64,000 bases of DNA, taken from Nitrosopumilus sp. Lineage in GTDB: Archaea; Thermoproteota; Nitrososphaeria; Nitrososphaerales; Nitrosopumilaceae. The DNA is taken from NCBI GenBank assembly GCA_965197525.1, contig OZ240211.1, positions 1,472,001 through 1,536,000 of the forward strand. The letters run 5' to 3'. The stretch's first letter is position 1. Every line of letters starts with the position of its first letter. Below, piece by piece: positions 12,251 through 25,516 of the stretch. Position numbers and translations under genes: made by a program. Under the pieces are notes generated by a model. The model ran no database searches. It was not told the DNA's origin and saw nothing but the letters and a program-made list of their open reading frames with translations.

Positions 12251-13903
12251 ATGGCATCGATTCAACAAGGACCAAATGGGCCTGTACTTGTCCTCAAAGA
12301 GAGCGCGTTACAACAAAAAGGTAAAGATGCTCAACAAAATAACATTGCAGCAGCAAAACTAGTTGCACAACTCGTTAGAAGCAGTCTTGGTCCTAGAGGT
12401 TTAGACAAGATGCTCGTTGATTCCTTGGGCGATGTAACTATTACAAATGATGGCGCTACAATTCTCAAAGAGATTGATGTTCAACATCCTGCAGCCAAGA
12501 TGATGGTTGAAATTTCTAAAACCGTAGACAACGAGGTTGGCGATGGTACTACCTCTTCTGTTATATTTGGCGGTGCTTTGCTAGCTAGAGCAGAAGATCT
12601 TCTCAACAAGGATGTTCACTCTTCAACTATAATTGACGGTTATCAGGCTGCAGCAGACAAAACTCTTGAAATCTATTCTGAATTAGCAAAAAAGATCCAA
12701 CATGACGACCGCGAATCACTATTACAAATCGCTACAACAAGTATGCAATCAAAATTAGTATCTGAGGATAGTGATGCCCTCTCAAAAATTGTTGTTGATG
12801 CTGTTTTAAGCATTGTAGTTAAGAATGGTGATAATTACGTAGTTGATCTAGATAATATCAAAGTAGAGAAAAAATCAGGCGGCTCAATATCTGATACTCA
12901 AATTATTAAAGGAATTGTTCTTGATAAAGAGATTGTTCACAGTGGCATGCCTACAAAGACGGAGAATGCCAAAATTGCATTAATCAACTCTGCATTAGAG
13001 ATTGAAAAGACCGAATTGAGTGCAGAGATTAGAATATCTGACCCAACACAGATGCAGATGTTCCTAGAAGAAGAGAATAGAATGTTAAAGACGATGGTTG
13101 ACAAATTACATGATGTGGGTGCCAATGTCCTGATATGTCAAAAAGGAATTGACGATATCTCTCAGCACTACCTTGCAAAGTATGGTATTATGGCAGTACG
13201 TCGTGTCAAAGAGAGCGATATGACAAAACTTGCAAAGGCTACAGGTGGACGAGTAATAAACAACCTTGATGATCTTACTGAAAATGATCTTGGTCATGCT
13301 GATTTGGCACATCAAAAGAAGGTTGAATCTGACAAGTGGGTTTTCATTGAAGGGTGCAAACATCCGCTATCAGTCACTTTGCTGATTCGTGGTGGTACAC
13401 AGCGACTAATTGATGAAGTTGACCGCTCTATTCATGATTCTTTAATGGTAGTAAAAGACGTTATTGAAACACCTGCAATTGTTGCAGGCGGCGGTGCCCC
13501 AGAAGCATATGTGGCATCTTTGCTCAAAAATTGGGCTGATAGCTTTGATGGAAGAGAGCAGTTGGCAATTAAAAAATATGCTGAAGCATTAGAGACTATA
13601 CCACTTACCATTGCTGAAAATGCCGGAATGGATCCCATTGATACAATGGCTAATCTGCGAGCAAAACAGAACCAAAACCAAAAGTGGACTGGAATTGATG
13701 CTAGAAATATGAAGATTGCAGATATGATGCCACTAGGCGTTATAGAACCAATTACAGTAAAAGAGCAGATAATCAAATCTGCTACAGAGGCTGCATGCAT
13801 GATACTGCGAATTGATGATGTAATTGCAGTATCGGGCGGTCCTGGAGGTGGCGGCGGTCCTGGTGCCGGTGGTATGCCGCCTGGCATGCCTGGAATGGGC
13901 TAG
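12251..13903 (+). CDS. ths: Thermosome (group II chaperonin) subunit, canonical
   Basis: [34 protein letters not shown]-type Gly/Met/Pro tail. Confidence 0.96.
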
Positions 13904-13948
13904 TAGTAGTAGTAGTAGTAGTAATAGTAGTAGTAGTAGTAGTAGTAG
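13901..13948 (+). repeat. (TAG)7-TAA-(TAG)8 microsatellite starting at the ths stop codon
   Basis: Direct reading of 13901..13948. Confidence 0.95.
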
Positions 13949-13998
13949 TATAGTCTGATACTGTACTGGCAGTCTAACTAAACTAATTATCTATCTAG

Positions 13999-14286
13999 GT
14001 AATTGTGTAATTTTTTGACGTGATTTTTAACCTTTAAAAATAATATTTTGATCTTAGGTTATCTGAAACCACGATTACAGTGTTTAATTATGTCCAACGA
14101 CACAGTCGAAGATCACTGGAAGCATAGATATGAAAAATTAGAGCGTCAGATGAAGGAAGAGATGGCCAAGAAGACAAAAAGATAGATAAATTGGAGGAAA
14201 TGGTAAACAGGTTGGAAGGACTGCTTGCCAATGCAGTTAACCAGATAAAGACAATTACACTTGAGATGAGTCGTGCAAAAGAGGCT
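13999..14286 (+). mobile_element. IS66 remnant, left copy (left end plus 5' of transposase)
   Basis: About 94% identical to 23943..24227; encodes MSNDTVEDHWKHRYEKLERQMKEEMAK/DKKIDKLEEMVNRLE coiled coil. Confidence 0.8.
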
Positions 14287-14320
14287 GCCGCTGCTGCGGT
14301 AAATGCAAGAAATATAGTTT

Positions 14321-16009
14321 CTAATAATACTGATGCATCTGCCTCTGCTCTAACCCCTCTTGCTCAAAGTGGTTATGCGACTTGCCTCCGTCATGATGTG
14401 CATGAACTGTTCCGTCAATATGGCAATGTGTGTTATCAATCAAATCCTTGATAAACACATCATCCACGTTTAGCAGCATGTTGACAGTCTCAACTGCAGT
14501 TATCAGGACTTGCTGTTTTACAACTGCGGTCTCCATAATTTGATGGAGCGACATGTCAGACACTTTTCTTGTAGCAGCGTCTATCCCGCACCACTTGACG
14601 TTGCTATTAGACAGCGTTTGGAGTTGTGTAAATGTGTCAATTACATCCATTCCTATATTTTGGGCCAGTGTCAACGGTATCTGCTCAAGGGCGCTTGCAA
14701 ATCTTTGCATTCCGATCTGCTCCTTGCCGGGAACAGACAATGAGTGATCTTTAATCTCTTGCGCAATCAGCCATTCGACAGAGCCTGCACCGCGTACAAC
14801 AAATGGACTTTGAATAAAATTGCGTAGCACATAAAATGCGTTCAAGACATTCCTGTGGAATTCGTCAAGATAGCGCTTAGAGTTTGCCCTTAACAACAAA
14901 GTTACGGATTTTGGATTACTGTCATTGCTGCTCTCAATGAAGACCATGCTGTCACCCCCGACAGTTCTCTGATAGACATTCTTTGCAAGACCTAACTCAG
15001 CATCCGATATTTCATGTATACTCTTGCATGTTTTCGCGGCAGTTGCTTTTTCCAGCCACCACAGATCATTGTACTTTACACGACGCATCGAGATGATGCC
15101 ATGTTTTGCAAGTTTGGTTTGAACATACTCACTTACGCCCTTTCTTGACACCACTACGTTGGCTCCAGAGTCTACGATGCACCCTACTAGCGCAAGCAGG
15201 TCTGTATCCTCTTGGTCAATGAATGAGCCCATCTGGCTGGGGGAGGTAATCTCTATCTGAGATTCGGTCCTTGTCCTCATGGTCTCCAGTGGATCATTTA
15301 GCAGTAAAATTTTGGCATCAATAATGCTTTTGGGCATCGCAGAGCTGTCTATTGTCTTGTCAATGACTATGCCCCTGACTAGTTCGGTGTCAAGAATGCT
15401 ACCAAGCTTTTCCTCAATCTTTATGTCATCCACACTGATCTTTCCGTTCTGCAGATCAGCTACGCTACACACCGCATCAACGATGGTCTCAACGATTTGT
15501 TCAGGATTATCATGCAAGTCAAATATTGCTTTTCCTCCAAGACACGTAACTAGCAGACGCCTCATCATTTCCCTGTCTGTCCGGTTTGCCACCGTCTTAA
15601 TTTTTTCCAATACATTCAGGGCATATTCAAGGCTTTGCTCGTATGACTTTACAATTGCGGCTACAGGAAATTGCATTTTTAACAGCGTCTCGGCTTGGCC
15701 GATCAGACTACCTATCAGGACAGATGCGGATGTCGTGCCATCTCCAACATGGGTGTCAACGATATTTACAGCGTCCACAACAGACTTGCCTGCGGGATGA
15801 AGAACATCTGTCTTTCTTAAAAATGCACCGCCGTGGCCTGTTATCGTCTCTTCCCCAAGTATGTCAATATACATTTTTTCCATGCCGCGCGGCCCCAGAG
15901 ACGTCTTTATGATATCAGTGACAAGTCTTCCTGACATCAGGTTGTATTTTTGTGAGTCCTGCAGTCCAACACGTGAAATATCACCATCGAGAAGATCAGG
16001 ATATTTCAT
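14321..16009 (-). CDS. Divergent group II chaperonin (thermosome-like) with His-rich C-terminal tail
   Basis: Colinear with ths; GPRGMEKM and GDGTTS kept, but TND is TGH and HD is LN; tail HCHIDGTVHAHHDGGKSHNH. Confidence 0.9.
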   Translation of the reverse strand: MKYPDLLDGDISRVGLQDSQKYNLMSGRLVTDIIKTSLGPRGMEKMYIDILGEETITGHGGAFLRKTDVLHPAGKSVVDAVNIVDTHVGDGTTSASVLIGSLIGQAETLLKMQFPVAAIVKSYEQSLEYALNVLEKIKTVANRTDREMMRRLLVTCLGGKAIFDLHDNPEQIVETIVDAVCSVADLQNGKISVDDIKIEEKLGSILDTELVRGIVIDKTIDSSAMPKSIIDAKILLLNDPLETMRTRTESQIEITSPSQMGSFIDQEDTDLLALVGCIVDSGANVVVSRKGVSEYVQTKLAKHGIISMRRVKYNDLWWLEKATAAKTCKSIHEISDAELGLAKNVYQRTVGGDSMVFIESSNDSNPKSVTLLLRANSKRYLDEFHRNVLNAFYVLRNFIQSPFVVRGAGSVEWLIAQEIKDHSLSVPGKEQIGMQRFASALEQIPLTLAQNIGMDVIDTFTQLQTLSNSNVKWCGIDAATRKVSDMSLHQIMETAVVKQQVLITAVETVNMLLNVDDVFIKDLIDNTHCHIDGTVHAHHDGGKSHNHFEQEGLEQRQMHQYY

Positions 16010-16192
16010 TTAACTTTCCAGAGCATATGTAGTATTAAAACATAGCAGCTGTTGGCGTCATCTAAAAAATTATAATTCATGCATAACTAAAAACTTTATA
16101 AAAATTATCTTCATTTTTTCAGGTTGCATACAGGTACAAAATGTATTTGACAAAAAAGACACACAAACAATTTTGTTGGCAGGCAGATGATC

Positions 16193-17782
16193 TCAAAGTT
16201 TGCTGTCACTCGTTATGACATCGTCAGGTCCCGGAGTGTCGGGCGTGCTAGATGCTGTAAGTCCGGAACCGTCATTCTCCTTGAAATGCTTCAGATCCTC
16301 TCCTGTGATTACGTCCTCTTCTGGAGGCACATAATCCCGTATATCGTGTCTTGCCTTTCCTGGGTACTTGTCTTGTGTCACAAGTGCTACAATCACAAAT
16401 AGCGCAATCCCGATGGCAGGTGCTATCATGGCCTCTATTCCCGCCAGCTCCTCAGGCGTGATAAAGAACATAATCAGCCTGACGGCCGAGCCTGTGATAA
16501 GGCACGCCATGGCAGCAGGCATGTTTGCCTTTTTCCAGAACAGGCCAAACGTTAGCGGTCCAAACGCTCCTGCAAGCACAATGTCAAATGCCAGTACAAG
16601 ATAAATTCCAGGGGCCGGTGCAAGATATCCGATGGTTGTCCCAGCTATCATCATCGGCACAAGTACGATACGGGTAACATTGAGCAGTTTGCGATCGCTC
16701 CAGTTTGCCTGCCCCATCCATCGTCGCCGAATTATTCTTTGCGTCAAGTTTCTTGATATGACACTTGATATTGCCAGCAGCCCTCCACTGGCAGTAGACA
16801 TGGACGCGCCGATAACTCCCATCAGTATGGCCGCCCCTATTGCAAACGGTAAGAACTGTGTGGATAGTATAGGAAGCGCCAGCGCCGGATCGGTGTCACC
16901 TGGCAGGAAATAGAATGCCACTATTCCTAACATACTTGTTGGAATTATCGTAAACATTGTCAGCATGCCTCCCATGAATGCTCCTCTTTGGGCAGTCTTG
17001 GGATTTTTGGCAGAGAATACACGTTCCATAAAGTCAAGTGCAATGATATCCCCTAGCCCCAATGCAAGAAGGGCACCCCAGTTGATTAACGCACCGTTTG
17101 CAATATCATACAGTCCTGAAAGATCTAGGAACTCTGGCGGAGCTGCACTGTATATGATGTCCCATGGAACTTCTGAAAAACCGCCAAAGAAGAATAGGAA
17201 TGCGGCCCAAAACGATCCTATGGCAAGATATACCTGAAATAGATTGGTATAAGCTGATGCAAACAGTCCGCCTGCAATTGTGTAGGCAACTATTACACTA
17301 GCTGCAATCGTTATTCCCCAAAAGTAATCTATGCCAAAAACAACCTGTAGGATAAATCCACTGGCAGCCAGATTACCTGCAACAAGAATGAGAAAGCCGA
17401 TGATCAGGAGAATGCTGGAGATTCCTTCAGCGCCGTTGCCGAATCTTCTGAAATAAAAATCAGGTAGCGTAATCATCGACATCTTGTTCAGGGGCTTGGC
17501 ATAAAATATGGCCACTATAAACAGACACACTCCAAGACCTAGTGGAACAACTGCCCCTGCCCAAAATCCAAACTCAAAGACCAGTGCGATATTTCCAAGC
17601 GACGAGTTCCCGTCTACTGCCTGAGCTGCAAGCATTGTTCCCACCATAAATAAAGGCAGACTTTTTCCTGCAACTATCAGTCTCTTGCCGCTATGTCTGA
17701 CTAGCCTGCCTGCAAATACTCCAACTACAAGTGTAATAATTATAAAAGCTGCAACTGCGATACCAAAACCGTCCAGTTCCAT
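16193..17782 (-). CDS. Sodium:solute symporter (SSS) family transporter
   Basis: About 13 hydrophobic segments; YTIAGGLFASAYT, ERVFSAK, AILMGVIGASMSTASG, GLFWKKAN. Confidence 0.9.
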   Translation of the reverse strand: MELDGFGIAVAAFIIITLVVGVFAGRLVRHSGKRLIVAGKSLPLFMVGTMLAAQAVDGNSSLGNIALVFEFGFWAGAVVPLGLGVCLFIVAIFYAKPLNKMSMITLPDFYFRRFGNGAEGISSILLIIGFLILVAGNLAASGFILQVVFGIDYFWGITIAASVIVAYTIAGGLFASAYTNLFQVYLAIGSFWAAFLFFFGGFSEVPWDIIYSAAPPEFLDLSGLYDIANGALINWGALLALGLGDIIALDFMERVFSAKNPKTAQRGAFMGGMLTMFTIIPTSMLGIVAFYFLPGDTDPALALPILSTQFLPFAIGAAILMGVIGASMSTASGGLLAISSVISRNLTQRIIRRRWMGQANWSDRKLLNVTRIVLVPMMIAGTTIGYLAPAPGIYLVLAFDIVLAGAFGPLTFGLFWKKANMPAAMACLITGSAVRLIMFFITPEELAGIEAMIAPAIGIALFVIVALVTQDKYPGKARHDIRDYVPPEEDVITGEDLKHFKENDGSGLTASSTPDTPGPDDVITSDSKL

Positions 17783-18142
17783 AATTATACATGTTGAAAA
17801 AATTATATAAATATGCGATTTTGACTGTAAAATACGTTTTATACTCTAAAAAACAATACGTATAATACATTTTTTGTTAAAATTCATGTAAATTTTACAA
17901 TATAAAGAAATTTGGATAATGGTTACGACAAGTTCAAACGCGGTTTAATGGCAAAAAAAAATAGATGTGTTTTTGAGAAATGTGTAGTATAATGATGATG
18001 CAATAAGAATGCAGTTTACATATAAGAAAACAATTCGGAGAGATAGCGGCAAAAGAAATTACCAAGCTTGTTTAAAAGATAAGACAGCTATGCTCTGCAA
18101 TCCAATTCAAAATTTTATTAGTTTGGCACTGTTAAAAACGGC

Positions 18143-18316
18143 ATGGACAAGCAATACGCTTTTGCAGTCATACTAATCATCATTGGAGTTGGGTTAAGCC
18201 AGTCCGGAACAGGCGATTCTTTTTTTATAGGTCTTGGTGTTGGAACTGTAATAATGGGTTCGTTTTGGGTATTGATCAGAATAATAAAAGAGATCAAAAA
18301 GAAAGAGCAAAAATAA
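18143..18316 (+). CDS. Small two-TM membrane protein (57 aa), not in track
   Basis: MDKQYAFAVILIIIGVGLSQSGTGDSFFIGLGVGTVIMGSFWVLIRIIKEIKKKEQK; positive-inside tail. Confidence 0.6.
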   Translation: MDKQYAFAVILIIIGVGLSQSGTGDSFFIGLGVGTVIMGSFWVLIRIIKEIKKKEQK

Positions 18317-18358
18317 AAACAGATCGTGAAAAAAATATAAACTATAATCTGTGAATTA

Positions 18359-18886
18359 ATGCAAATGCCTGCAAAAGGATATGCCACAATTGGTTTGAAA
18401 CCTGCAATTCTAAAAAAGCTGCACGAAGTGACAGACAAAAGCTATCCTGGAATGTTCCTGCCCAGCACACTAATTATCATGATGAATGAGATCAAGAACG
18501 GGTCATACTCTGTAGAGTTGCACAACATTAGACTGGATTTGTCAGGTCACTACAACACTATAACCATCAGATTGGATGTGCAACAATGGCTAGAAGAAAA
18601 TCACAAGAAGTTGAGTGCAGAGTATGAGGAGAGATACAGGATAAAATCTTTTACAAAATTCGTGAGCTACTTTATTATCAACGCACTTGAGTCAAAGCTT
18701 AACAGTCAAAACCACACCATCAACCTAAAAGAGTCAGACTACGAATGGCTGCAAAAAGAGTACAATAAACACAAGGAAGGCATTACCGACTTTCAAGAGG
18801 TTCCAAGCTTTGACAAGTTTGCGGACATTTACATTAATAATTTGTTTGAGAAGATCAAGGCTGCAAAAAAGATCTTGACGATATAA
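18359..18886 (+). CDS. Hypothetical protein, possibly a tandem ribbon-helix-helix DNA-binding protein
   Basis: Three units TIGLKPAILKKL / TITIRLDVQQWL / TINLKESDYEWL; start may be 18365. Confidence 0.7.
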   Translation: MQMPAKGYATIGLKPAILKKLHEVTDKSYPGMFLPSTLIIMMNEIKNGSYSVELHNIRLDLSGHYNTITIRLDVQQWLEENHKKLSAEYEERYRIKSFTKFVSYFIINALESKLNSQNHTINLKESDYEWLQKEYNKHKEGITDFQEVPSFDKFADIYINNLFEKIKAAKKILTI

Positions 18887-19258
18887 GATGTCTGATTCAG
18901 CTGGTGGTTGCAAAGACGCCAAACACAACAAAGACTGATCCGCCAAAACGCCGCCATTATTTTTTTTTTAAGAAAACCAGGGGATAAGGTACAAAAAGAC
19001 AGATGATAGATGTACAGATAGGCACAAATATCTGAAAATTTGCTAAAAAGACTGCTTGTACGCAGTAGCCAGATATATGAAAACTGTTTTCAGGACATAG
19101 TGATACCCAAACAACAAGTTTTTCAAGCAATGTCAAGTTTCAGGGTCACGTTTGATTAGATCTAAGAAGACATATGACGATTCATAGATACCAAAAATCT
19201 ACATGTGATGTTTGCGGTAACACATAGTTATGACGAGTCAAACTCCAAATAAGAAAAA

Positions 19259-19510
19259 TTAGAGTGGAACCATTGTATCAATCAATCGTGCGTTAGTGAC
19301 TTGTCCATCTTTTTCCTGCATCTCAAGGTCTACCGTATATTTTAGAGAGTTCAGCATGAAATTAACCTGAATGTCCCATGCCTCTCTAGTTCCTTTTTCA
19401 GGTACTGCAAACGTCTCGTTGACTCTAAAGTCACTTACGTCTCCATACAATGCATTGATCACTCTTTTGGATTCTCGATATATGTCGTCATTCGTACTTA
19501 CTTTTTGCAT
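19259..19510 (-). CDS. Small hypothetical protein
   Basis: MQKVSTNDDIYRESKRVINALYG..; second ATG (19510) preferred to track start 19531. Confidence 0.7.
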   Translation of the reverse strand: MQKVSTNDDIYRESKRVINALYGDVSDFRVNETFAVPEKGTREAWDIQVNFMLNSLKYTVDLEMQEKDGQVTNARLIDTMVPL

Positions 19511-19879
19511 GGTTATACTACATATACTCAAATATAAAAATATTATAAGATGGAAGATGACTGAAATTTTTCAGTGTCTCCACATGCAAGAGATCAGATA
19601 TATTAATAACGCCTTTGAGGCTGCGATCAGCCAACACACGGCAGACGGTTTTGAGAGTCTTTTTTTTTGCAGTGCGCAGATATAACCTCACTGAGAACTT
19701 TAATGCCTATGCAAGATAATCTTTAACAGTATGACAAGTTTTATCAAAGATTTTTTTTTTTTGAGATTTGGGACAAGGCAAGATCTGCTTTGCATTGTTG
19801 CCGTCATTTATCTGAGAATGTCCACGGTATGCAGGTGTGTGGACAAAATAAATTGTTTGTATATCTCTTGCAGTAAGAT

Positions 19880-21133
19880 CTATAGGCCGCCAAATTTTTT
19901 TGAAAGCGGCACGCGGTTTATTTTTGCCAATTCTGCCTCAGCCTTATATTTATGATAAAGCGCAGTTTGGTTTTCAGGATCAATTGCAAGGGCCTTGTCA
20001 TACCATTTCAGAGACAGATCGTATTTTTCGAGTCGCAAGAACAGTTTTCCTTTGTAGCTTAGTGCGTATACATAATTTGGGTTAATTGCAAGGGCCTTGT
20101 CGCAGTACTCTAGTGCCTCAGTGTATTTTTTAGAATGCTCCAACAGCCATACCATGCTACACAACGCAGTAATATTTTGAGGCTCGATATCAAGTGCACG
20201 CTGACAATAAAATCTTGCAGCAGCAAAGTGCTTCATCGAAAACAGCGATACACCCTTGCTGTAAAGTGCCCGTGTGTTAGTTGAGTCATACTCTAGAACT
20301 TTATCAAAACATTTCGCGGCTTTTTTGTAAAGTCCCGTCCTGTCCAGAACCAGACCCTTGTTTATCCATGCATCAGTGCATCGAGGGTCAATCTCCAAAG
20401 CCCTGTCATAAAATACAAAGATCTCCTTGTTTGAGAATCCAGCAAAATCAAGTATCCATCCTTTGGCCACAAGCGCCTTTGTATTTTTGTTGTTTATCTC
20501 AAGAGCTTTGGTATAGAATTTTATTGCATCCTTGTGTTTTTTCTGTTTTGTGAGTTTTTGTCCTTGTTCATAGAGTTTATCAGATTGCGCGGAATCCTCT
20601 GCGATGGCACGGTTTAAAAACAATATTGATTCAGAACTCCTATCTAGCTTTCCCAATATCATGCTCTTGTTGTAAAGTGCAGAAGCGTTGTTTGGATTAG
20701 ATGACAAAATCCGTTCGGTTATTTCAAGTGCCTTGTCGTATTGGCCCAACTTGTAAAAGCACAGTCCCATCAATATCAACGAATCAGTGTATGTACAGTC
20801 AATATCAAGCGATCTCTGAAAGCAGCGTATGGCCTTGTCGTACTGTTTCGTCTTTTCAAGCGCAACCCCTTTGGCGTACAAGGTATCTATGCTTTTTGGA
20901 TCAGATGACAAAATGTGATCAAAGCATACTATGGCCTTTTGAAACTTTTCCATTTTATTGAGCGTTATGCCTTTGTGGAGATATGCCGTATGGTTGTCAG
21001 GATCAACGGAGATGGATTTGTCAAACTTTGAGACAGCCTTTTTGTAGTCATTGTAATAGATGGCAGTCAATCCCTGATTCAAGAAATACCACGAGTTCTT
21101 TGAATTTTTTAACAGCATGATTACTTGACGCAA
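19880..21133 (-). CDS. Tetratricopeptide-repeat protein (about 11 TPRs)
   Basis: Repeated ~34-aa units A-x3-KG..Y-x2-A-x3-(F/Y)DKAL-x-I(D/N)P. Confidence 0.92.
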   Translation of the reverse strand: MRQVIMLLKNSKNSWYFLNQGLTAIYYNDYKKAVSKFDKSISVDPDNHTAYLHKGITLNKMEKFQKAIVCFDHILSSDPKSIDTLYAKGVALEKTKQYDKAIRCFQRSLDIDCTYTDSLILMGLCFYKLGQYDKALEITERILSSNPNNASALYNKSMILGKLDRSSESILFLNRAIAEDSAQSDKLYEQGQKLTKQKKHKDAIKFYTKALEINNKNTKALVAKGWILDFAGFSNKEIFVFYDRALEIDPRCTDAWINKGLVLDRTGLYKKAAKCFDKVLEYDSTNTRALYSKGVSLFSMKHFAAARFYCQRALDIEPQNITALCSMVWLLEHSKKYTEALEYCDKALAINPNYVYALSYKGKLFLRLEKYDLSLKWYDKALAIDPENQTALYHKYKAEAELAKINRVPLSKKFGGL

Positions 21134-21535
21134 GTGATATTTTTATCTTTGAATCGTATATTACGGATATGGTCTCGTTCTTGACGGTTTTTACTTGATG
21201 CGGGAAAGATATGCACATGACATAATCTAATTTGAGGACAGGAGGTTGAGAGTATGCACGGTATAGATTTTTCAGACAACAAGAGCTGTCATCTAGGGCG
21301 TTGCAGGTGTTTTTGATCAGATGAAAAATGGTACGCGTTCAGGTTGTCTGAGAAAACTTTGCAGTTTAGGCGGTGTGGCATGCTTTGAGAACATTTCTAG
21401 TCTTCCCAGGCACAGTGCAAACACGTGCAAAAAACGCAATATAGGAAGTATTTTGAAAATTTTGCAGTTTAAATGCAAAACCAAAGCCTACTTGGAAGAA
21501 CGGTCTGTTTTCCAGGCAAAGGTAAAGATACAGCC

Positions 21536-22294
21536 CTAGTTCAATAAAAACAGGTCGGATTTCAGCCCAACTGTAAATATGATGTTTATTCCGACAACCA
21601 GCGTTACACCAGCTATGGCGTATCTGACATACTTGGCGGCAAGATGAATTTTTGGCAGCAATAACATAAATGAGATTCCCAAAACACCACTGGCAAGGGA
21701 CATGCCAACTATGCTGCCAATACCAAACAGGACTAGGAAGTAAACCACAATGTCAAAACTACCCATTGTGGATGCAGCAAGCGCTACAATACTGCCGCTT
21801 CCTGCAAGGCCGTGAATGCAACCTATTATGTATGACTTGTGGCCGTGCTTGTGATCCGTATTGTGCGTGTGGGGATGGGTGTGAGAGATTCCGTTTGGAT
21901 GCTTGTGTGAATGTGTATGTTTTTGCCTTAGAATGCTTTTGTTAGCGGCTGTCATAACCCCCAAAAATATCAGCATAGAACCCACTATAACTTCCGCACT
22001 CAAAAAGAAAGTGTCAGATATACTCAATGAGAGACCTGCAATCAGCAGGCCGATCAATACGATGCTGGATGTATGCCCCATTCCCCACAGCATGCCTTTG
22101 AAGGAAGAGAAGACTGTCAGGATTTTTAGATTCGTTTTTTTCGAGGTACGGTTGTTGTTATCGTTTAGAACCTGTGTAGAGACCGCACTGATATGATCAG
22201 GCTCAAAAGCATGTACCAGTCCGATCACAAGACCTGCAACGAGTATCAAGAAAGGATTGTTTGCTTGTAATATTTCAATCAACACATCAATCAT
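21536..22294 (-). CDS. NiCoT/UreH-like nickel-cobalt transport or urease-accessory membrane protein
   Basis: HAFEPDH (H-x4-DH) signature, WGMGHT, loop with 11 His, HGLAGS. Confidence 0.85.
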   Translation of the reverse strand: MIDVLIEILQANNPFLILVAGLVIGLVHAFEPDHISAVSTQVLNDNNNRTSKKTNLKILTVFSSFKGMLWGMGHTSSIVLIGLLIAGLSLSISDTFFLSAEVIVGSMLIFLGVMTAANKSILRQKHTHSHKHPNGISHTHPHTHNTDHKHGHKSYIIGCIHGLAGSGSIVALAASTMGSFDIVVYFLVLFGIGSIVGMSLASGVLGISFMLLLPKIHLAAKYVRYAIAGVTLVVGINIIFTVGLKSDLFLLN

Positions 22295-22767
22295 TACAAG
22301 GTACCCCCGGACGGCGGTTCTGATTGAATGAAGGGATATTCGTTGATATGGATGGGTGCTGTGACCAAAATTGTCTTGACATGATCGTTGTAATGAGCAT
22401 CAATATTGTTGCCATCACCATCACCATCACCATCATCAGATACAGCACCTGCATCATTTGCAATAATCGTAAAGGTCAGCTCCCTTAGGCTCTCAGGAAC
22501 GCCAATCATGACTTGATGCGGCAACAGAATCTTTGGAATATGGTTTTGGATTTCATCGACTGCCTTGCCTTCATTCAGTGAGAGTATAACATATGCAACA
22601 AACAGTTCCAAGACTTGGTCTACGTTTAGCCTCATATTATTTAGAAGACTGTCTTTGATCTGCTGAACAGATGCTAGAAATATCGATTCATCAGACGCGT
22701 CATAATGAAATACCCTGATAAACGACTCGGTGTCCGGATCTCCTTGTACGGAGACTTTGATCTCCAT
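22294..22767 (-). CDS. Urease gamma-subunit-like protein
   Basis: RLNVDQ..NEGKAVDEI..ILLPHQVMIGVPESL..ILVTAPI follows the UreA pattern; 1-nt stop/start overlaps on both sides. Confidence 0.7.
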   Translation of the reverse strand: MEIKVSVQGDPDTESFIRVFHYDASDESIFLASVQQIKDSLLNNMRLNVDQVLELFVAYVILSLNEGKAVDEIQNHIPKILLPHQVMIGVPESLRELTFTIIANDAGAVSDDGDGDGDGNNIDAHYNDHVKTILVTAPIHINEYPFIQSEPPSGGTL

Positions 22768-23882
22768 TAACTTCTCTCAGGTATTTTAGAGGTCGAATTA
22801 CCAAAACTGTATGTGTTTCCAGTTCCCCGATAATCGTTAGGCCTTACCGGATCTCCTCCATCAAGCCCTCGCTTTGTTAGTGATAATCCAGCTAAAAGCT
22901 CTATAACCAGTCTTTGTCCCAGTCCAGATGTAATGCCTCCATTGTAAGAACTGTTATCGCTTACGTCGTATGCAGGTGAGATCTCTACTAGATCCATTGC
23001 AAATCTGTCAGGATCAAATGACTTTGATAGCAGTCGTATCATTCTAATCCCTTCCCTTGATGTAAGGCCGTTTGGCTCAGGCTCGCCGGTACCTGGTGCA
23101 TAAGCAGGATCAAAAGAGTCGATATCCCAACTAAGGTACACTGCATCAGTCCCGTCATTTGCCCTGTCTGCTATCTCTTTGGCAATGTAATCAATTCCCA
23201 GTTCTTCAACATCAAGCATTGTAAACCATTGAAAGTCTTGATCCGCCATCCATTTGTACAGATCACGGCCAGGCCAGTATCCTCTTGGACCCACTAGAGA
23301 GTAGTTTCTTCCCTTCAGACAGCCCATTTCCATTATTCTTCTGATATGTGCACCATGGTCGTATTTGAAACCTGTCAGGCCTTGGGGGGCACAATCTGCG
23401 TGGGTATCAAAGTGAATCATACCAATGTTCTTGTATTTTTTTGCAAAAGCCCGAACATTTGCATAAGTAATAGAATGATCCCCTCCAAGCATTACAGGAA
23501 TGCCATCTGCCTCTAACACCTCTTTGACCTTCAGGGTCATTCTTTTGTGCGACTCTATAACATCGCCTGGCGAGACTATGACATCACCATAGTCAACTGT
23601 TCTGAAAGTGCCAAACGGATCTGCACCCGTCTCGATATTGAACCTCTCAAATGGTGGGGAGGGCACAGTTGATGCCGCCCTTATTGCCCTTGGACCGTAT
23701 CGCGCACCAGGACGAATGGTTGTGCCAAAATCAAATGGTTCTCCGATAATTGCAACATCAGGTTTTGCCTGTAGTAACTCTTTGTGGTTTTTTATCAATG
23801 GAAGATGCAAAAATGTATTAATTCCTACAAATGGTGCAACATCTGCACCCTGAAAATCCTCACCGTAAAATTCTGCACCCAT
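22767..23882 (-). CDS. Ureohydrolase (agmatinase/guanidino-hydrolase family), substrate unknown
   Basis: RPGARYGP, GGDHS, DTHAD, HG, DIDSFDP, PGTG; all binuclear metal ligands present. Confidence 0.92.
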   Translation of the reverse strand: MGAEFYGEDFQGADVAPFVGINTFLHLPLIKNHKELLQAKPDVAIIGEPFDFGTTIRPGARYGPRAIRAASTVPSPPFERFNIETGADPFGTFRTVDYGDVIVSPGDVIESHKRMTLKVKEVLEADGIPVMLGGDHSITYANVRAFAKKYKNIGMIHFDTHADCAPQGLTGFKYDHGAHIRRIMEMGCLKGRNYSLVGPRGYWPGRDLYKWMADQDFQWFTMLDVEELGIDYIAKEIADRANDGTDAVYLSWDIDSFDPAYAPGTGEPEPNGLTSREGIRMIRLLSKSFDPDRFAMDLVEISPAYDVSDNSSYNGGITSGLGQRLVIELLAGLSLTKRGLDGGDPVRPNDYRGTGNTYSFGNSTSKIPERS

Positions 23883-23942
23883 TTTAACAGAGATTGTAAG
23901 CTCTTTTGATTATTAAGTATTGCATGTAAAATACGCATTTTT

Positions 23943-24560
23943 GTAATTGCATAGTTTTTTGAAGTGATTTTTAACCTTAAATAATATTTTGATCTTAGGT
24001 TATCTGAAACCACGATTACAGTGTTTAATTATGTCCAACGACTCAACCGAAGATCATTGGAAGCATAGATATGAAAAATTAGAGCGTCAGATAAAGGAAG
24101 AGATGGCCAAGAAGACAAAAAGATAGATAAATTGTAGGAAATGGTAAACAAGTTGGAAGGACTGCTTACCAATGCAGTTAACCAGATAAAGACAATTACA
24201 CTTTAGATGAATAGTGCAAAAGAGGCTTCATTCTTGCCCTCATCAACAGGCTCAAAGGAGAGAAATACAAGCATTGCAACAGGATGCTCAAGAGGATCAG
24301 AAGAGAGAAAGGCCACCTGTTTACGTTACTTGAGGTTGAAAGAATGAGTGACATGACAACTCTGTAGAGAGGGAGAGGGGGCATCAGACAGTGCGTCATA
24401 CTGCGCAATAACAGCTATGGGAGCAGGTCCGAAGAATGGGCATCGGCCATAGTAGTGTTGATGAGTGTAAAACAAACCTGCAAGGCAAAGAACAATAATT
24501 TGTTCGATGATGTAATGCGCATGAATTTGTTCAAAACGTGTCAAAAAACTACCTAGTTGC
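23943..24560 (+). mobile_element. Internally deleted IS66 (618 bp) retaining both ends
   Basis: 5' part as the left copy; then frameshifted transposase C-terminus RMLKRIRREKGHLFT..DNSVER..IRQCVILRNNSYGSRSEE..LMSVKQTCK (NNxAERxLR..GxRS..SxxxTC pattern). Confidence 0.88.
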
Positions 24561-24628
24561 CTATCTAGTTATTTCCCTACACTAATATCACTTTCCTGAA
24601 AGCTTAACTATTCTGATCTCATAATTTA

Positions 24629-25516
24629 TTGTTGTTGCACAAAATTGGCATCGATTTAGGTGGTACAAAGACTGAGGCAATCTTGCTTGATGAAGATTTC
24701 CGCGTCATAAAGAGAAAACGCGTTCCCACACCTCAAAACGACTATCAAAAGATTCTTGACTCTATCTCATCGTTAATCTCTGATGTATCAAATGACATTG
24801 ATGAATTCTCATTAGGCATCTGCACCCCTGGTGCAATATCTAAACGCACTGGACTAGTTAAAAATAGTAACACAAGATGTCTTATTGGTAGACCGCTCAA
24901 AGAGGATCTAGAAGAAACACTTGAACGCAAAATATCCATGGAGAATGATGCTAATTGCTTTACGATGGCAGAATCTATACTAGGTGCAGGAACCGGCTTT
25001 GATCTCGTCTTTGGAATCATTCTTGGAACCGGTGTCGGGGGCGGTATCGTAATTGACAAAAAACTTTATTCTGGCAGAACTAACATTGCAGGTGAATGGG
25101 GTCATCATACATTGCACCGTAACGGTAATCCTTGCTACTGTGGAAATACCGGATGTGTGGAAACATATCTTAGTGGTCCCTCTCTTGCACGCAGGTGGAC
25201 TGAATTAACTGGAAGGACTCAAACCATGCCTGAAATCATCTCTTACGTCAATAATAACACTGATAATGCGATTAACAAACAATGGAGAGATGAATTTCTT
25301 ACAAACTTTGGGTATGGTGTTGCAAACGTAATTGATATACTAGATCCTGACATAGTTATTCTGGGTGGCGGTCTCTCAAACATTGATTTTTTATACACAG
25401 ACGGTGTGAAATCAGTTTACAACAAGGTATTCTCAGATTCAATTAATACACCTATACTTCCAAATAAACTAGGTGATTCTGCAGGAGTTTTTGGTGCTTG
25501 CATGCTTGAAGGTTGA
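24629..25516 (+). CDS. ROK-family sugar kinase
   Basis: GIDLGGTK, ENDANC, GTGVGGG, GEWGH, CYCGNTGCVE, GDSAGVFGA. Confidence 0.93.
   Translation: MLLHKIGIDLGGTKTEAILLDEDFRVIKRKRVPTPQNDYQKILDSISSLISDVSNDIDEFSLGICTPGAISKRTGLVKNSNTRCLIGRPLKEDLEETLERKISMENDANCFTMAESILGAGTGFDLVFGIILGTGVGGGIVIDKKLYSGRTNIAGEWGHHTLHRNGNPCYCGNTGCVETYLSGPSLARRWTELTGRTQTMPEIISYVNNNTDNAINKQWRDEFLTNFGYGVANVIDILDPDIVILGGGLSNIDFLYTDGVKSVYNKVFSDSINTPILPNKLGDSAGVFGACMLEG

Follow-up and report, generated by a model that had tools for sequence, protein, structure and literature searches.

In the chromosome of a Nitrosopumilus species, an ammonia-oxidizing archaeon, a 9.6-kb block of conserved genes is located between two genes that are normally adjacent, and it is bounded by two dead IS66-family remnants as well as a perfect 8-bp target duplication, the whole unit spanning 10.56 kb. 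We regard this as an evident, though unexceptional, case of native genes having been moved by an IS. The unit lies within the 64,000-nt stretch of DNA that was analyzed (the window), where its features and neighboring genes are arranged as follows.

12251-13903, + strand: ths1, canonical thermosome subunit, left neighbor of the insertion (PF00118 at 2.9e-191)
13991-13998, no strand: left copy of the 8-bp target-site duplication, CTATCTAG
13999-14316, + strand: IS66-family copy 1, a ~318-bp 5' fragment with IRL (13999-14022), 5' UTR and frameshifted N-terminal coiled-coil codons, without IRR (from alignment with L107:3910-4178)
14321-16009, - strand: ths3, divergent third thermosome paralogue, first cargo gene (PF00118 at 9.6e-126)
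16193-17782, - strand: sodium:solute symporter (SSF) family transporter (PF00474 at 7e-27)
18359-18886, + strand: conserved 175-aa protein, no Pfam family
19259-19531, - strand: small conserved ORF of about 90 aa, no Pfam family, with equivalently located homologues in relatives
19880-21133, - strand: TPR-repeat protein (PF00515 at 7.5e-68)
21536-22294, - strand: NicO-like Ni/Co permease (PF03824 at 1.1e-6)
22294-22767, - strand: urease-gamma-like (UreA-like) small protein (PF00547 at 0.0016, below the Pfam cut-off)
22767-23882, - strand: agmatinase/arginase-family ureohydrolase, last cargo gene (PF00491 at 4.2e-80)
23935-23942, no strand: inner flank of copy 2, GCATTTTT, differing from the outer flank; native agmatinase-upstream DNA extends up to here
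23943-24560, + strand: IS66-family copy 2, a 618-bp internal-deletion derivative with both inverted repeats kept
24561-24568, no strand: right copy of the 8-bp target-site duplication, CTATCTAG
24629-25516, + strand: ROK-family kinase/regulator gene, right neighbor of the insertion (PF00480 at 1.4e-73)

Among 10/10 genomes of the same genus (9/9 complete genomes plus the closest relative, G112), ths1 is directly followed by the ROK gene, and the 10.6 kb is thus an insertion in the present genome. The cargo without IS66 ends, which the preliminary description had suggested looking for between these two genes, occurs in none of the ten, as nothing at all lies between them. The placement of the duplication likewise stands as first described: CTATCTAG is found immediately 5' of GTAATTGTGTAATTTTTTGAC, the IRL of copy 1, and immediately 3' of ...GTCAAAAAACTACCTAGTTGC, the IRR of copy 2, whereas the inner flank of copy 2 is GCATTTTT. 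Both a single target duplication around the whole unit and the adjacency of the flanking genes in relatives are characteristic of composite transposons. The nucleotide-exact empty site, a 27-mer (CTAATTATCTATCTAGTTATTTCCCTA), was absent from the genome contigs and metagenome contigs searched. An independent 67-kb ENA contig exhibits the same order of ROK, IS remnant and agmatinase, and the arrangement is thus not a misassembly. In an exact-protein search for near-identical strains, agmatinase and the 261-aa neighbor both led to this one contig; ths1 returned no record.

Judged by its sequence characters, the element is a member of the IS66 family, since a PF03050 transposase, GTAA inverted repeats and an 8-bp target duplication are all present. 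A related fragment in the same genome (L001:1215-2285) carries PF03050 (1.1e-36, 127 bits), as do the full-length relatives P0001-P0013, and the 3' part of copy 2 is 68% identical to residues 353-457 of the transposase P0002 (1e-34). The IRLs begin with GTAATTG... at 13999 and 23943, and the IRR at 24560 reads GCAACTAG... in reverse complement, its tip having mutated T>C to give GCAA instead of GTAA. The full-length reference IS, L107, is 1470 bp long with a single 457-aa ORF and GTAAC...GTTAC ends, and its termini (GTAACTG.../...CAGTTAC) are complementary at 19/24 positions. Related 1641-bp copies in two other Nitrosopumilus genomes (G146 and G002) are flanked by 8-bp duplications in 3/4 cases (CTTTAATC, AAAAAACA and AAATTTTT), so that both the IS66 ends and the 8-bp habit, previously asserted from general knowledge of the family, have been borne out. 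Unlike classical three-ORF IS66, the reference IS has no tnpA or tnpB accessory ORFs; its single-ORF architecture places it in the ISBst12-like group, with the subgroup named after ISfinder. It resembles that group in its DDE_Tnp_IS66 domain, GTAA-initial inverted repeats and 8-bp duplication, and the full-length relatives are similarly about 1.5-1.6 kb with one 457-487-aa ORF encoding an N-terminal coiled coil and zinc-finger region. Unlike other ISBst12-like elements, it persists only as relics in the present genome, and its lineage is archaeal (Nitrosopumilus) and of rare occurrence within the genus (8/151 genomes).

Copy 1 can be aligned with L107:3910-4178 and with the transposase P0007 through ...AKEAAAAAVNARNI, and it ends 3-4 nt from the ths3 stop codon; similarity to the ths3 flank of the closest relative begins at 14320. 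Copy 2 consists of the IRL and 288 bp fused to the last 333 bp of the element (transposase C-terminus and IRR) and contains several stop codons. The two copies lie in direct orientation and have only 288 bp in common (13999-14286 vs 23943-24227) at 93.75% identity, yet they share the derived GTAAT tip and an A5 frameshift, which identifies them as sister copies. A common breakpoint at nt 288, by which the truncation of copy 1 and the deletion in copy 2 would be a single event, was considered and rejected, because copy 1 continues for ~30 nt, to 14316, in the full-length IS alignment. IS relics in the genome amount to pieces of 318 bp, 618 bp, 187 bp and about 1.05 kb plus a short C-terminal piece. 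No intact IS66 transposase was found in the genome, only N-terminally truncated or fragmentary genes, and both remnants are indeed dead.

We favor, at roughly even confidence, a route in which the whole unit was moved by a transposase supplied in trans and acting upon the outer IRL and IRR. The native 9.6-kb block (ths3, SSF, two small ORFs, TPR, NicO-like, UreA-like and agmatinase-family genes) would have been bracketed by two sister IS66 copies of the single-ORF type, and the trans-supplied transposase would have used the sole matched end pair, the left-copy IRL and the right-copy IRR, to carry the 10.56-kb unit into the 50-150-bp ths1-ROK spacer with duplication of the 8 bp CTATCTAG. The left copy may have lost its IRR before the move, in which case the next IRR downstream would have had to serve, and the unit would be of the IRR-skipping or composite type. 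The block would have become immobile later, as the copies decayed and all intact transposase genes were lost. This route is favored by the exact 8-bp repeat at the outer IRL and IRR only, the flanks of copy 2 itself being mismatched. Furthermore, the genome was found to contain neither a second copy of the block nor a leftover IS66 3' portion of the copies' lineage, and the latter result counts for transposition, since a donor site left behind by recombination would be expected to contain an IS remnant. Against it, no intact transposase source remains in the genome, and the frameshift common to both copies implies that neither could have supplied the enzyme. We infer a single transposition event carrying the cargo, and likewise the sequence in which truncation and movement took place. 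That the unit is mobile as a whole is deduced from this one event, as no second insertion was detected in the present genome or among junctions in the 151 genus genomes. The 28-mer of the IS-ths3 junction was absent from JGI metagenome contigs, and a donor site with the block between two IS copies was encountered in none of the genomes or metagenomes searched. To our knowledge, the chemistry of IS66 transposition is not established; if it is copy-out-paste-in, the genome must once have contained the block twice and have lost one copy afterwards. As regards the term composite transposon, applied originally, two sister copies do bracket the cargo, but the right one is an internal-deletion derivative and the left one, a 5' fragment without an IRR, departs from the canonical two-IS structure.

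The same final structure can also be obtained from a target duplication made by a lone IS, with later entry of the cargo through homologous recombination. Such a sequence of events, which we consider realistic, if somewhat improbable, would begin in the ths1-ROK spacer, where insertion of a single IS66 copy (the 618-bp derivative, perhaps) created the CTATCTAG duplication. The block, with a second IS66 copy near the agmatinase promoter (flank GCATTTTT), would have been excised as a circle and later integrated by a single crossover within the left 288 bp common to the copies, the outcome being a look-alike of an IS26 translocatable unit or pseudo-compound transposon made by host recombination. 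The unequal flanks of copy 2 (GCATTTTT / CTATCTAG) are a classic mark of IS-IS recombination, the direct-repeat copies share exactly the region that a crossover needs, and a circle ending at IS nt ~318 and the ths3 stop would generate the truncated copy 1 without an extra deletion. Excision would also account for the single-copy state of the block, and its several relocations within the family without visible IS66 ends show that non-transposase routes exist. However, an IS66 remnant (nt ~319 to the IRR, or a whole copy) should then be present at the donor site, and none of the genome's other fragments matches this expectation. There is a 187-bp miniature and an old C-terminal relic, and the fragment at 2174706-2175784, tried as the missing 3' half of copy 1, was rejected because its start is at nt ~418 rather than ~319 and its sub-lineage is a different one (79% vs 94% identity). 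This scenario further requires illegitimate or IS-IS excision and then re-capture of a non-replicating circle, and a lone IS at the site was seen in 0/151 genus genomes. Transposition as a unit and recombination of an IS-bearing circle were both named in the preliminary description; its reading is supported in all elements that could be tested, and both routes remain live.

Regardless of route, the cargo is by sequence comparison the organism's own genes rather than foreign DNA, with only its position changed. A view of it as an acquired accessory module has to be abandoned in favor of a native, genus-conserved block that was relocated. The block is conserved in >25 Nitrosopumilaceae genomes and is single-copy in the present one; ths3 orthologues are 54-87% identical across the Nitrosopumilaceae, the agmatinase-family protein has 93-95% aa identity to other species, and homologues of the ~90-aa ORF keep their position (L025 6876-7208, L070 and L093). 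Sampled lines of the cargo had also been described as richer in GC than the flanks. The GC content of the cargo does slightly exceed that of the flanks (41.8% vs 38.3%; genome 39.6%), but an equal or higher value is reached by 19% of 9.6-kb windows of the genome, and the GC-rich genes ths3 and SSF exceed their surroundings in relatives too, so the difference is a property of the genes themselves and does not count as evidence. None of the hallmarks of a genomic island (absence in close relatives, atypical composition, discordant phylogeny) was observed.

Horizontal acquisition of an IS66 composite transposon from another organism, replacing or supplementing native genes, is therefore very improbable. 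It could draw upon the slightly raised GC content, the rarity of the IS in the genus and a decayed NicO-like pseudogene (genome 2061505-2062294), which adjoins a gene flanking the block in many relatives and may have been left by a resident copy of earlier date. However, G112 is the nearest relative for cargo and flanks alike, with aa identities that are similar or higher in the cargo (agmatinase 99.5%, SSF 95%, ths3 87%) than in the flanks (ths1 93%, ROK 80%), and a tree of the block itself pairs the window with G112 as sisters (100% support), nested inside Nitrosopumilus. The two also have in common a derived inversion of the agmatinase operon, which is older than the IS event; no IS remnants were found at the inversion breakpoint (21134-21535) or in the other cargo spacers. 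Moreover, the branch of the NicO pseudogene precedes the split of the window from G112, which makes the pseudogene much more ancient than the IS copies' divergence of 6%.

It is still less credible that the two 8-mers agree by coincidence, or owe their agreement to the IS end sequence, within a structure built by unrelated rearrangements. The right flank of copy 2 does contain a 12-mer, CTATCTAGTTAT, that resembles the family IRR tip CTATCTAGTTAC; this tip (...CTATCTAGTTAC) closes the IRR of the genome's related fragment and agrees with the right flank at 11/12 positions. The window also contains more copies of the 8-mer than expected (5 vs 1.1). However, the flank upstream of the left CTATCTAG has no further IRR similarity (6/18 positions), an 8/8 match at both exact IS boundaries has a chance of ~2e-5 (base composition, 0.26^8), 8 bp is the duplication length measured for the related IS group, and the other three copies in the window (20640, 55408 and 58907) have unrelated contexts. 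Genome-wide, CTATCTAG occurs 58 times on both strands of 2.21 Mb.

The unit shares features with several known systems. Like Tn5, Tn9 and Tn10, it has cargo between two copies of one IS, outer ends serving as transposon ends and one duplication; compared with these, its copies are direct repeats, its left element is a 5' fragment lacking an inner end, neither copy encodes a transposase, and its cargo is native and of housekeeping type rather than accessory or resistance genes, with a single insertion known. The missing IRR of the left copy fits IRR skipping as in ISEcp1/IS1380 units, in which an IRL and a downstream IRR mobilize adjacent chromosomal genes with a single duplication. Unlike those units, the downstream end is a genuine second-copy IRR and not a surrogate, the IS family is different and the transposase would have acted in trans. 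IS26 employs both copy-in and targeted conservative modes (PMC8477213). Its translocatable units and pseudo-compound transposons are similar in having an IS-cargo-IS order, the duplication of a resident IS on the outside and cargo that enters beside or through an existing IS, although they are catalyzed by Tnp26 (IS6 family). We know of no Tnp26-like route for IS66, so host homologous recombination would be needed here.

Ammonia-oxidizing archaea have small, IS-poor genomes. The IS-like elements reported from them are for the most part units of one or two genes (PMC6563490). No description of IS66 composite elements in Thaumarchaeota was found in the literature searched. The present locus offers a clean, datable case of IS-mediated relocation of conserved chromosomal genes in such an organism. 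It also illustrates that a perfect target duplication around "cargo" need not mean foreign DNA, as the cargo here is the organism's own third thermosome gene together with a putative Ni-dependent ureohydrolase operon.

In other species, the block occupies different chromosomal sites; it is inherited vertically, and what varies is where it lies rather than whether it is there. A tentative possibility, somewhat on the unlikely side, is that the ths3-SSF-TPR-NicO-UreA-like-agmatinase block forms a single-copy "core" module of the Nitrosopumilaceae that relocates time and again, its internal order kept across at least a dozen chromosomal sites and, in at least three lineages, lying between genes that are adjacent elsewhere; the window would then be the sole case with a molecular footprint of the move (IS66 ends and target duplication). 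The shifting position makes the block a tractable system for gene clusters that stay together while moving. An integrase was sought in the extra 1.3 kb beside the block in G112, and the candidate, a 252-aa ORF without a Pfam family or a homologue in the other loci, was rejected. The block of G112 is located at tRNA-Ser(GCU), a candidate donor site whose locus is uninterrupted in the present genome (genome 1,010,060) and in four other species.

The 8-bp duplication that the preliminary description placed outside the outer IS ends is present as claimed. CTATCTAG occupies 13991-13998, abutting the left end GTAATTGTGTAATTTTTTGACGTG of copy 1, and recurs at 24561-24568, abutting the right end ...CGTGTCAAAAAACTACCTAGTTGC of copy 2, whereas the bases preceding the inner left end of copy 2, GTAATTGCATAGTTTTTTGAAGTG, which begins at 23943, are different (GCATTTTT). 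Together, the outer left inverted repeat (IRL), the outer right inverted repeat (IRR) and the single 8-bp duplication show that both ends were once the ends of one IS66 insertion event. The structure is best read as an IS-bounded transposition unit of the IS66 family, either composite or IRR-skipping, within a closed Nitrosopumilus genome of 2.21 Mb and 39.6% GC, of which the window covers 1472001-1536000. Its parts, and the other IS66 relics of this genome, are as follows.

Components of the unit (window coordinates) and IS66 relics elsewhere (genome coordinates)
13999-14316: copy 1, IS66-family remnant
14320-23942: cargo, comprising the following genes
ths3, a divergent thermosome paralogue (38-40% identity to the genome's two other thermosome genes)
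SSF symporter
175-aa protein and a small conserved ORF
TPR protein
operon of a NicO-like permease, a urease-gamma-like (UreA-like) protein and an agmatinase-family hydrolase
23943-24560: copy 2, 618 bp, an internal-deletion derivative with nt 1-288 fused to the last 333 nt of the reference
genome 86390-86576 (L002): 187-bp miniature IS derivative, IRL plus 144 bp joined to the last 36 bp with IRR
genome 2174706-2175784: 3' IS66 fragment of ~1.05 kb, 357-aa open frame, Pfam DDE_Tnp_IS66 at 1.1e-36
genome 1443396-1443707: older C-terminal transposase relic

Protein searches recovered full-length transposases of 457-471 aa from metagenomes, and copies 1 and 2 were measured against a complete 1470-bp reference element with one ORF and the ends GTAACTGTGTAGTTTTTTGAAGTG / CGTGTCAAAAAACTACCTAGTTAC (contig L107). 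When tested, the copies belong to the single-ORF group of IS66. The 8-bp duplication habit of this family is displayed by three of four copies of a related element, 1641 bp long, from two other Nitrosopumilus genomes (CTTTAATC, AAAAAACA and AAATTTTT). One of these genomes, G146, has several near-identical IS66-family copies with 8-bp duplications, and an apparently intact copy (487-aa ORF) lies inside the block itself, where it separates the 175-aa ORF from the SSF gene (L080:6730-8190). As a separate observation, the 12-mer CTATCTAGTTAT right of copy 2 (24549-24572) equals the IRR tip of the IS family itself, CTATCTAGTTAC in the genome fragment (2174706-2174720), at 11 of 12 positions. This could reflect either an IS preference for IR-like targets or chance; in the related IS, the other three duplications bear no likeness to the IRR tip.

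The left-end segments of the two copies (13999-14286 and 23943-24227) align over 288 bp at 93.75% identity. Both carry a GTAAT tip, where other copies have GTAAC, as well as a run of A5 (14175-14185 and 24116-24126), where the intact frame KKTKKIDKLEE, as in transposase P0007, needs A6. Judging from this common tip and one-base loss, copies 1 and 2 are sister copies; the A5 run represents an inactivating frameshift common to both or, alternatively, a slippage site. Copy 1 continues ~30 nt past the homology, via ...AKEAAAAAVNARNI, to end at ~14316. As the DNA 3' of ths3 in the closest relative, G112, matches the window only up to 14320, copy 1 is fused to the cargo at most 3-4 nt from the ths3 stop codon (14321-14323). 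At the opposite end of the cargo, only 60 bp of native DNA is left upstream of the agmatinase gene. The 3' part of copy 2 translates as a transposase C-terminus, stop codons included. Both transposases had been called dead, and indeed each remnant has stops or deletions and the genome holds IS66 relics only, with no intact element or transposase gene. These defects, together with a mutated IRR tip (GCAA), mark the unit as now immobile. Among the other relics, the 187-bp miniature has no target duplication and looks like a MITE relic, and beside the truncated end of the 3' fragment (2175784) there is a small ORF pair that is HicB/HicA-like in translation (genome 2175769-2176289; L001:2270-2793).

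The cargo had been proposed to arrive as one unit, by composite transposition or circle recombination. The outer ends are those of a single insertion, and the two routes, either of which gives the present structure, carry different weights. In the first, to which we give about an even chance, a transposase acting in trans would have used the left copy's IRL together with the right copy's IRR, thereby moving the whole unit; since the left copy lacks an IRR, the next one had to serve. This requires a transposase source that is no longer present and, had the chemistry been replicative, a donor copy that was subsequently lost. In the second, which we regard as possible but rather doubtful, the duplication stems from a lone IS, with which a circle bearing the block and an IS copy subsequently recombined. 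Under such a route an IS remnant should remain where the block was donated, and the genome's other relics do not fit; one of them starts at the wrong point and comes from another sub-lineage (79% vs 94% identity).

By either route, the cargo is native and not foreign DNA, moved to a new place, as several lines of evidence argue. Firstly, over 25 Nitrosopumilaceae genomes have the block with its order almost unchanged, at identities of 91-95% for agmatinase, 74-80% for SSF and 54-72% for ths3. Secondly, for the flanks, and equally for all cargo genes (agmatinase 99.5%, SSF 95%, ths3 87%, TPR 86%), G112 is the nearest relative, and a tree of ths3, SSF and agmatinase unites the window and G112 as sisters within Nitrosopumilus with 100% support. 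Thirdly, these two genomes differ from more than 20 other species (L025-L095) in carrying the agmatinase-UreA-like-NicO operon (21536-23882) inverted with respect to the TPR gene. This shared derived inversion predates the IS event; its breakpoint spacer (21134-21535) contains no repeat or IS relic. Lastly, the preliminary description had sampled cargo lines as GC-richer than the flanks; the cargo as a whole is at 41.8% vs 39.6% for the genome, but this is no foreign mark, being within the SD of 3.7 points among same-size windows, and its GC-rich genes are also GC-rich in relatives. Acquisition from a foreign source is accordingly very improbable. Coincidence of the 8-bp match is equally improbable, the chance of 8/8 identity at two fixed boundaries being ~2e-5 at this base composition; the three remaining occurrences of CTATCTAG in the window have unrelated contexts.

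Comparison with relatives identifies the 10.6-kb stretch as an insertion. The adenine deaminase-ths1-ROK neighbourhood is invariant among the genomes examined, being contiguous in nine of the same genus (most closed) with a ths1-ROK spacer of ~40-50 bp. In G112, a MAG, ths1 (93% aa identity) and ROK (80%) lie side by side on a single contig with 72 bp between them. Cargo between these genes without IS66 ends, which would have told against the proposal, is therefore seen in none of these ten. Neither junction recurs in any of 151 genus genomes, only eight of which contain the IS. No base-exact empty site turned up when two public collections were scanned for exact patterns, the spacers being too diverged for one. 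An independent 67-kb ENA contig has the order ROK-IS remnant-agmatinase-...-SSF, as in the window, which argues against misassembly. Minus the insertion, the window's spacer is ~155 bp vs 45-72 bp in relatives. A (TAG)n microsatellite of ~17 units runs from the ths1 stop codon onward (13901-13951) and is absent from the ths1-ROK spacers of all relatives.

In relatives, the block lies elsewhere. In G112 (L024:4652-6060 and L123; contigs C32 and C58), it is placed directly 3' of tRNA-Ser(GCU), between this tRNA and a gene, along with 1.3 kb and 0.5 kb of additional DNA; the same tRNA and gene are directly adjacent and uninterrupted here (genome 1009975-1010060) and in four other species. A 252-aa orphan ORF and a 137-bp repeat accompany the G112 block, and its far junction, ..GTTCCCCCATCCA followed by TTAAAAC, is loosely similar to the 3' end of the tRNA. 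The block of the nearest outgroups adjoins a homologue of genome gene 2062626-2063609, which flanks it in many relatives. Every cargo gene is single-copy here, except that beside this gene lies a frameshifted NicO-like pseudogene (genome 2061505-2062294; L128:2502-3294; 69% nt identity to the cargo NicO), which may mark an older residence. Its position as sister to window plus G112 in the NicO tree (support 91) means that it split off before those two diverged, so it was not the donor of the IS66 event. Overall, the block occupies many chromosomal contexts in Nitrosopumilaceae (L045, L070, L080, L093, L048, L049), its neighbours changing at least 17 times over 24 genomes when mapped on its own tree, and the genes on either side of it in L045, G002/G146 and G018 are adjacent to each other in the window's genome.

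In a survey of the mobile elements of thaumarchaea, IS-like transposons figure as units of one or two genes, and IS66 composites go unmentioned (PMC6563490); a 2026 survey of archaeal IS lists IS66 without IS-bounded units of this kind (PMC13343696). Two qualities are out of the routine: the cargo consists of housekeeping-type genes in a conserved, single-copy block, and the same block is found at different sites in different species. Elsewhere in the window, a very large CRISPR array extends from 40766 to about 52000, with ~157 repeats of the unit GTTTCAATCTTTGTTGTATTAGAATTTCCTTTGAAC at a period of 70-72 bp.
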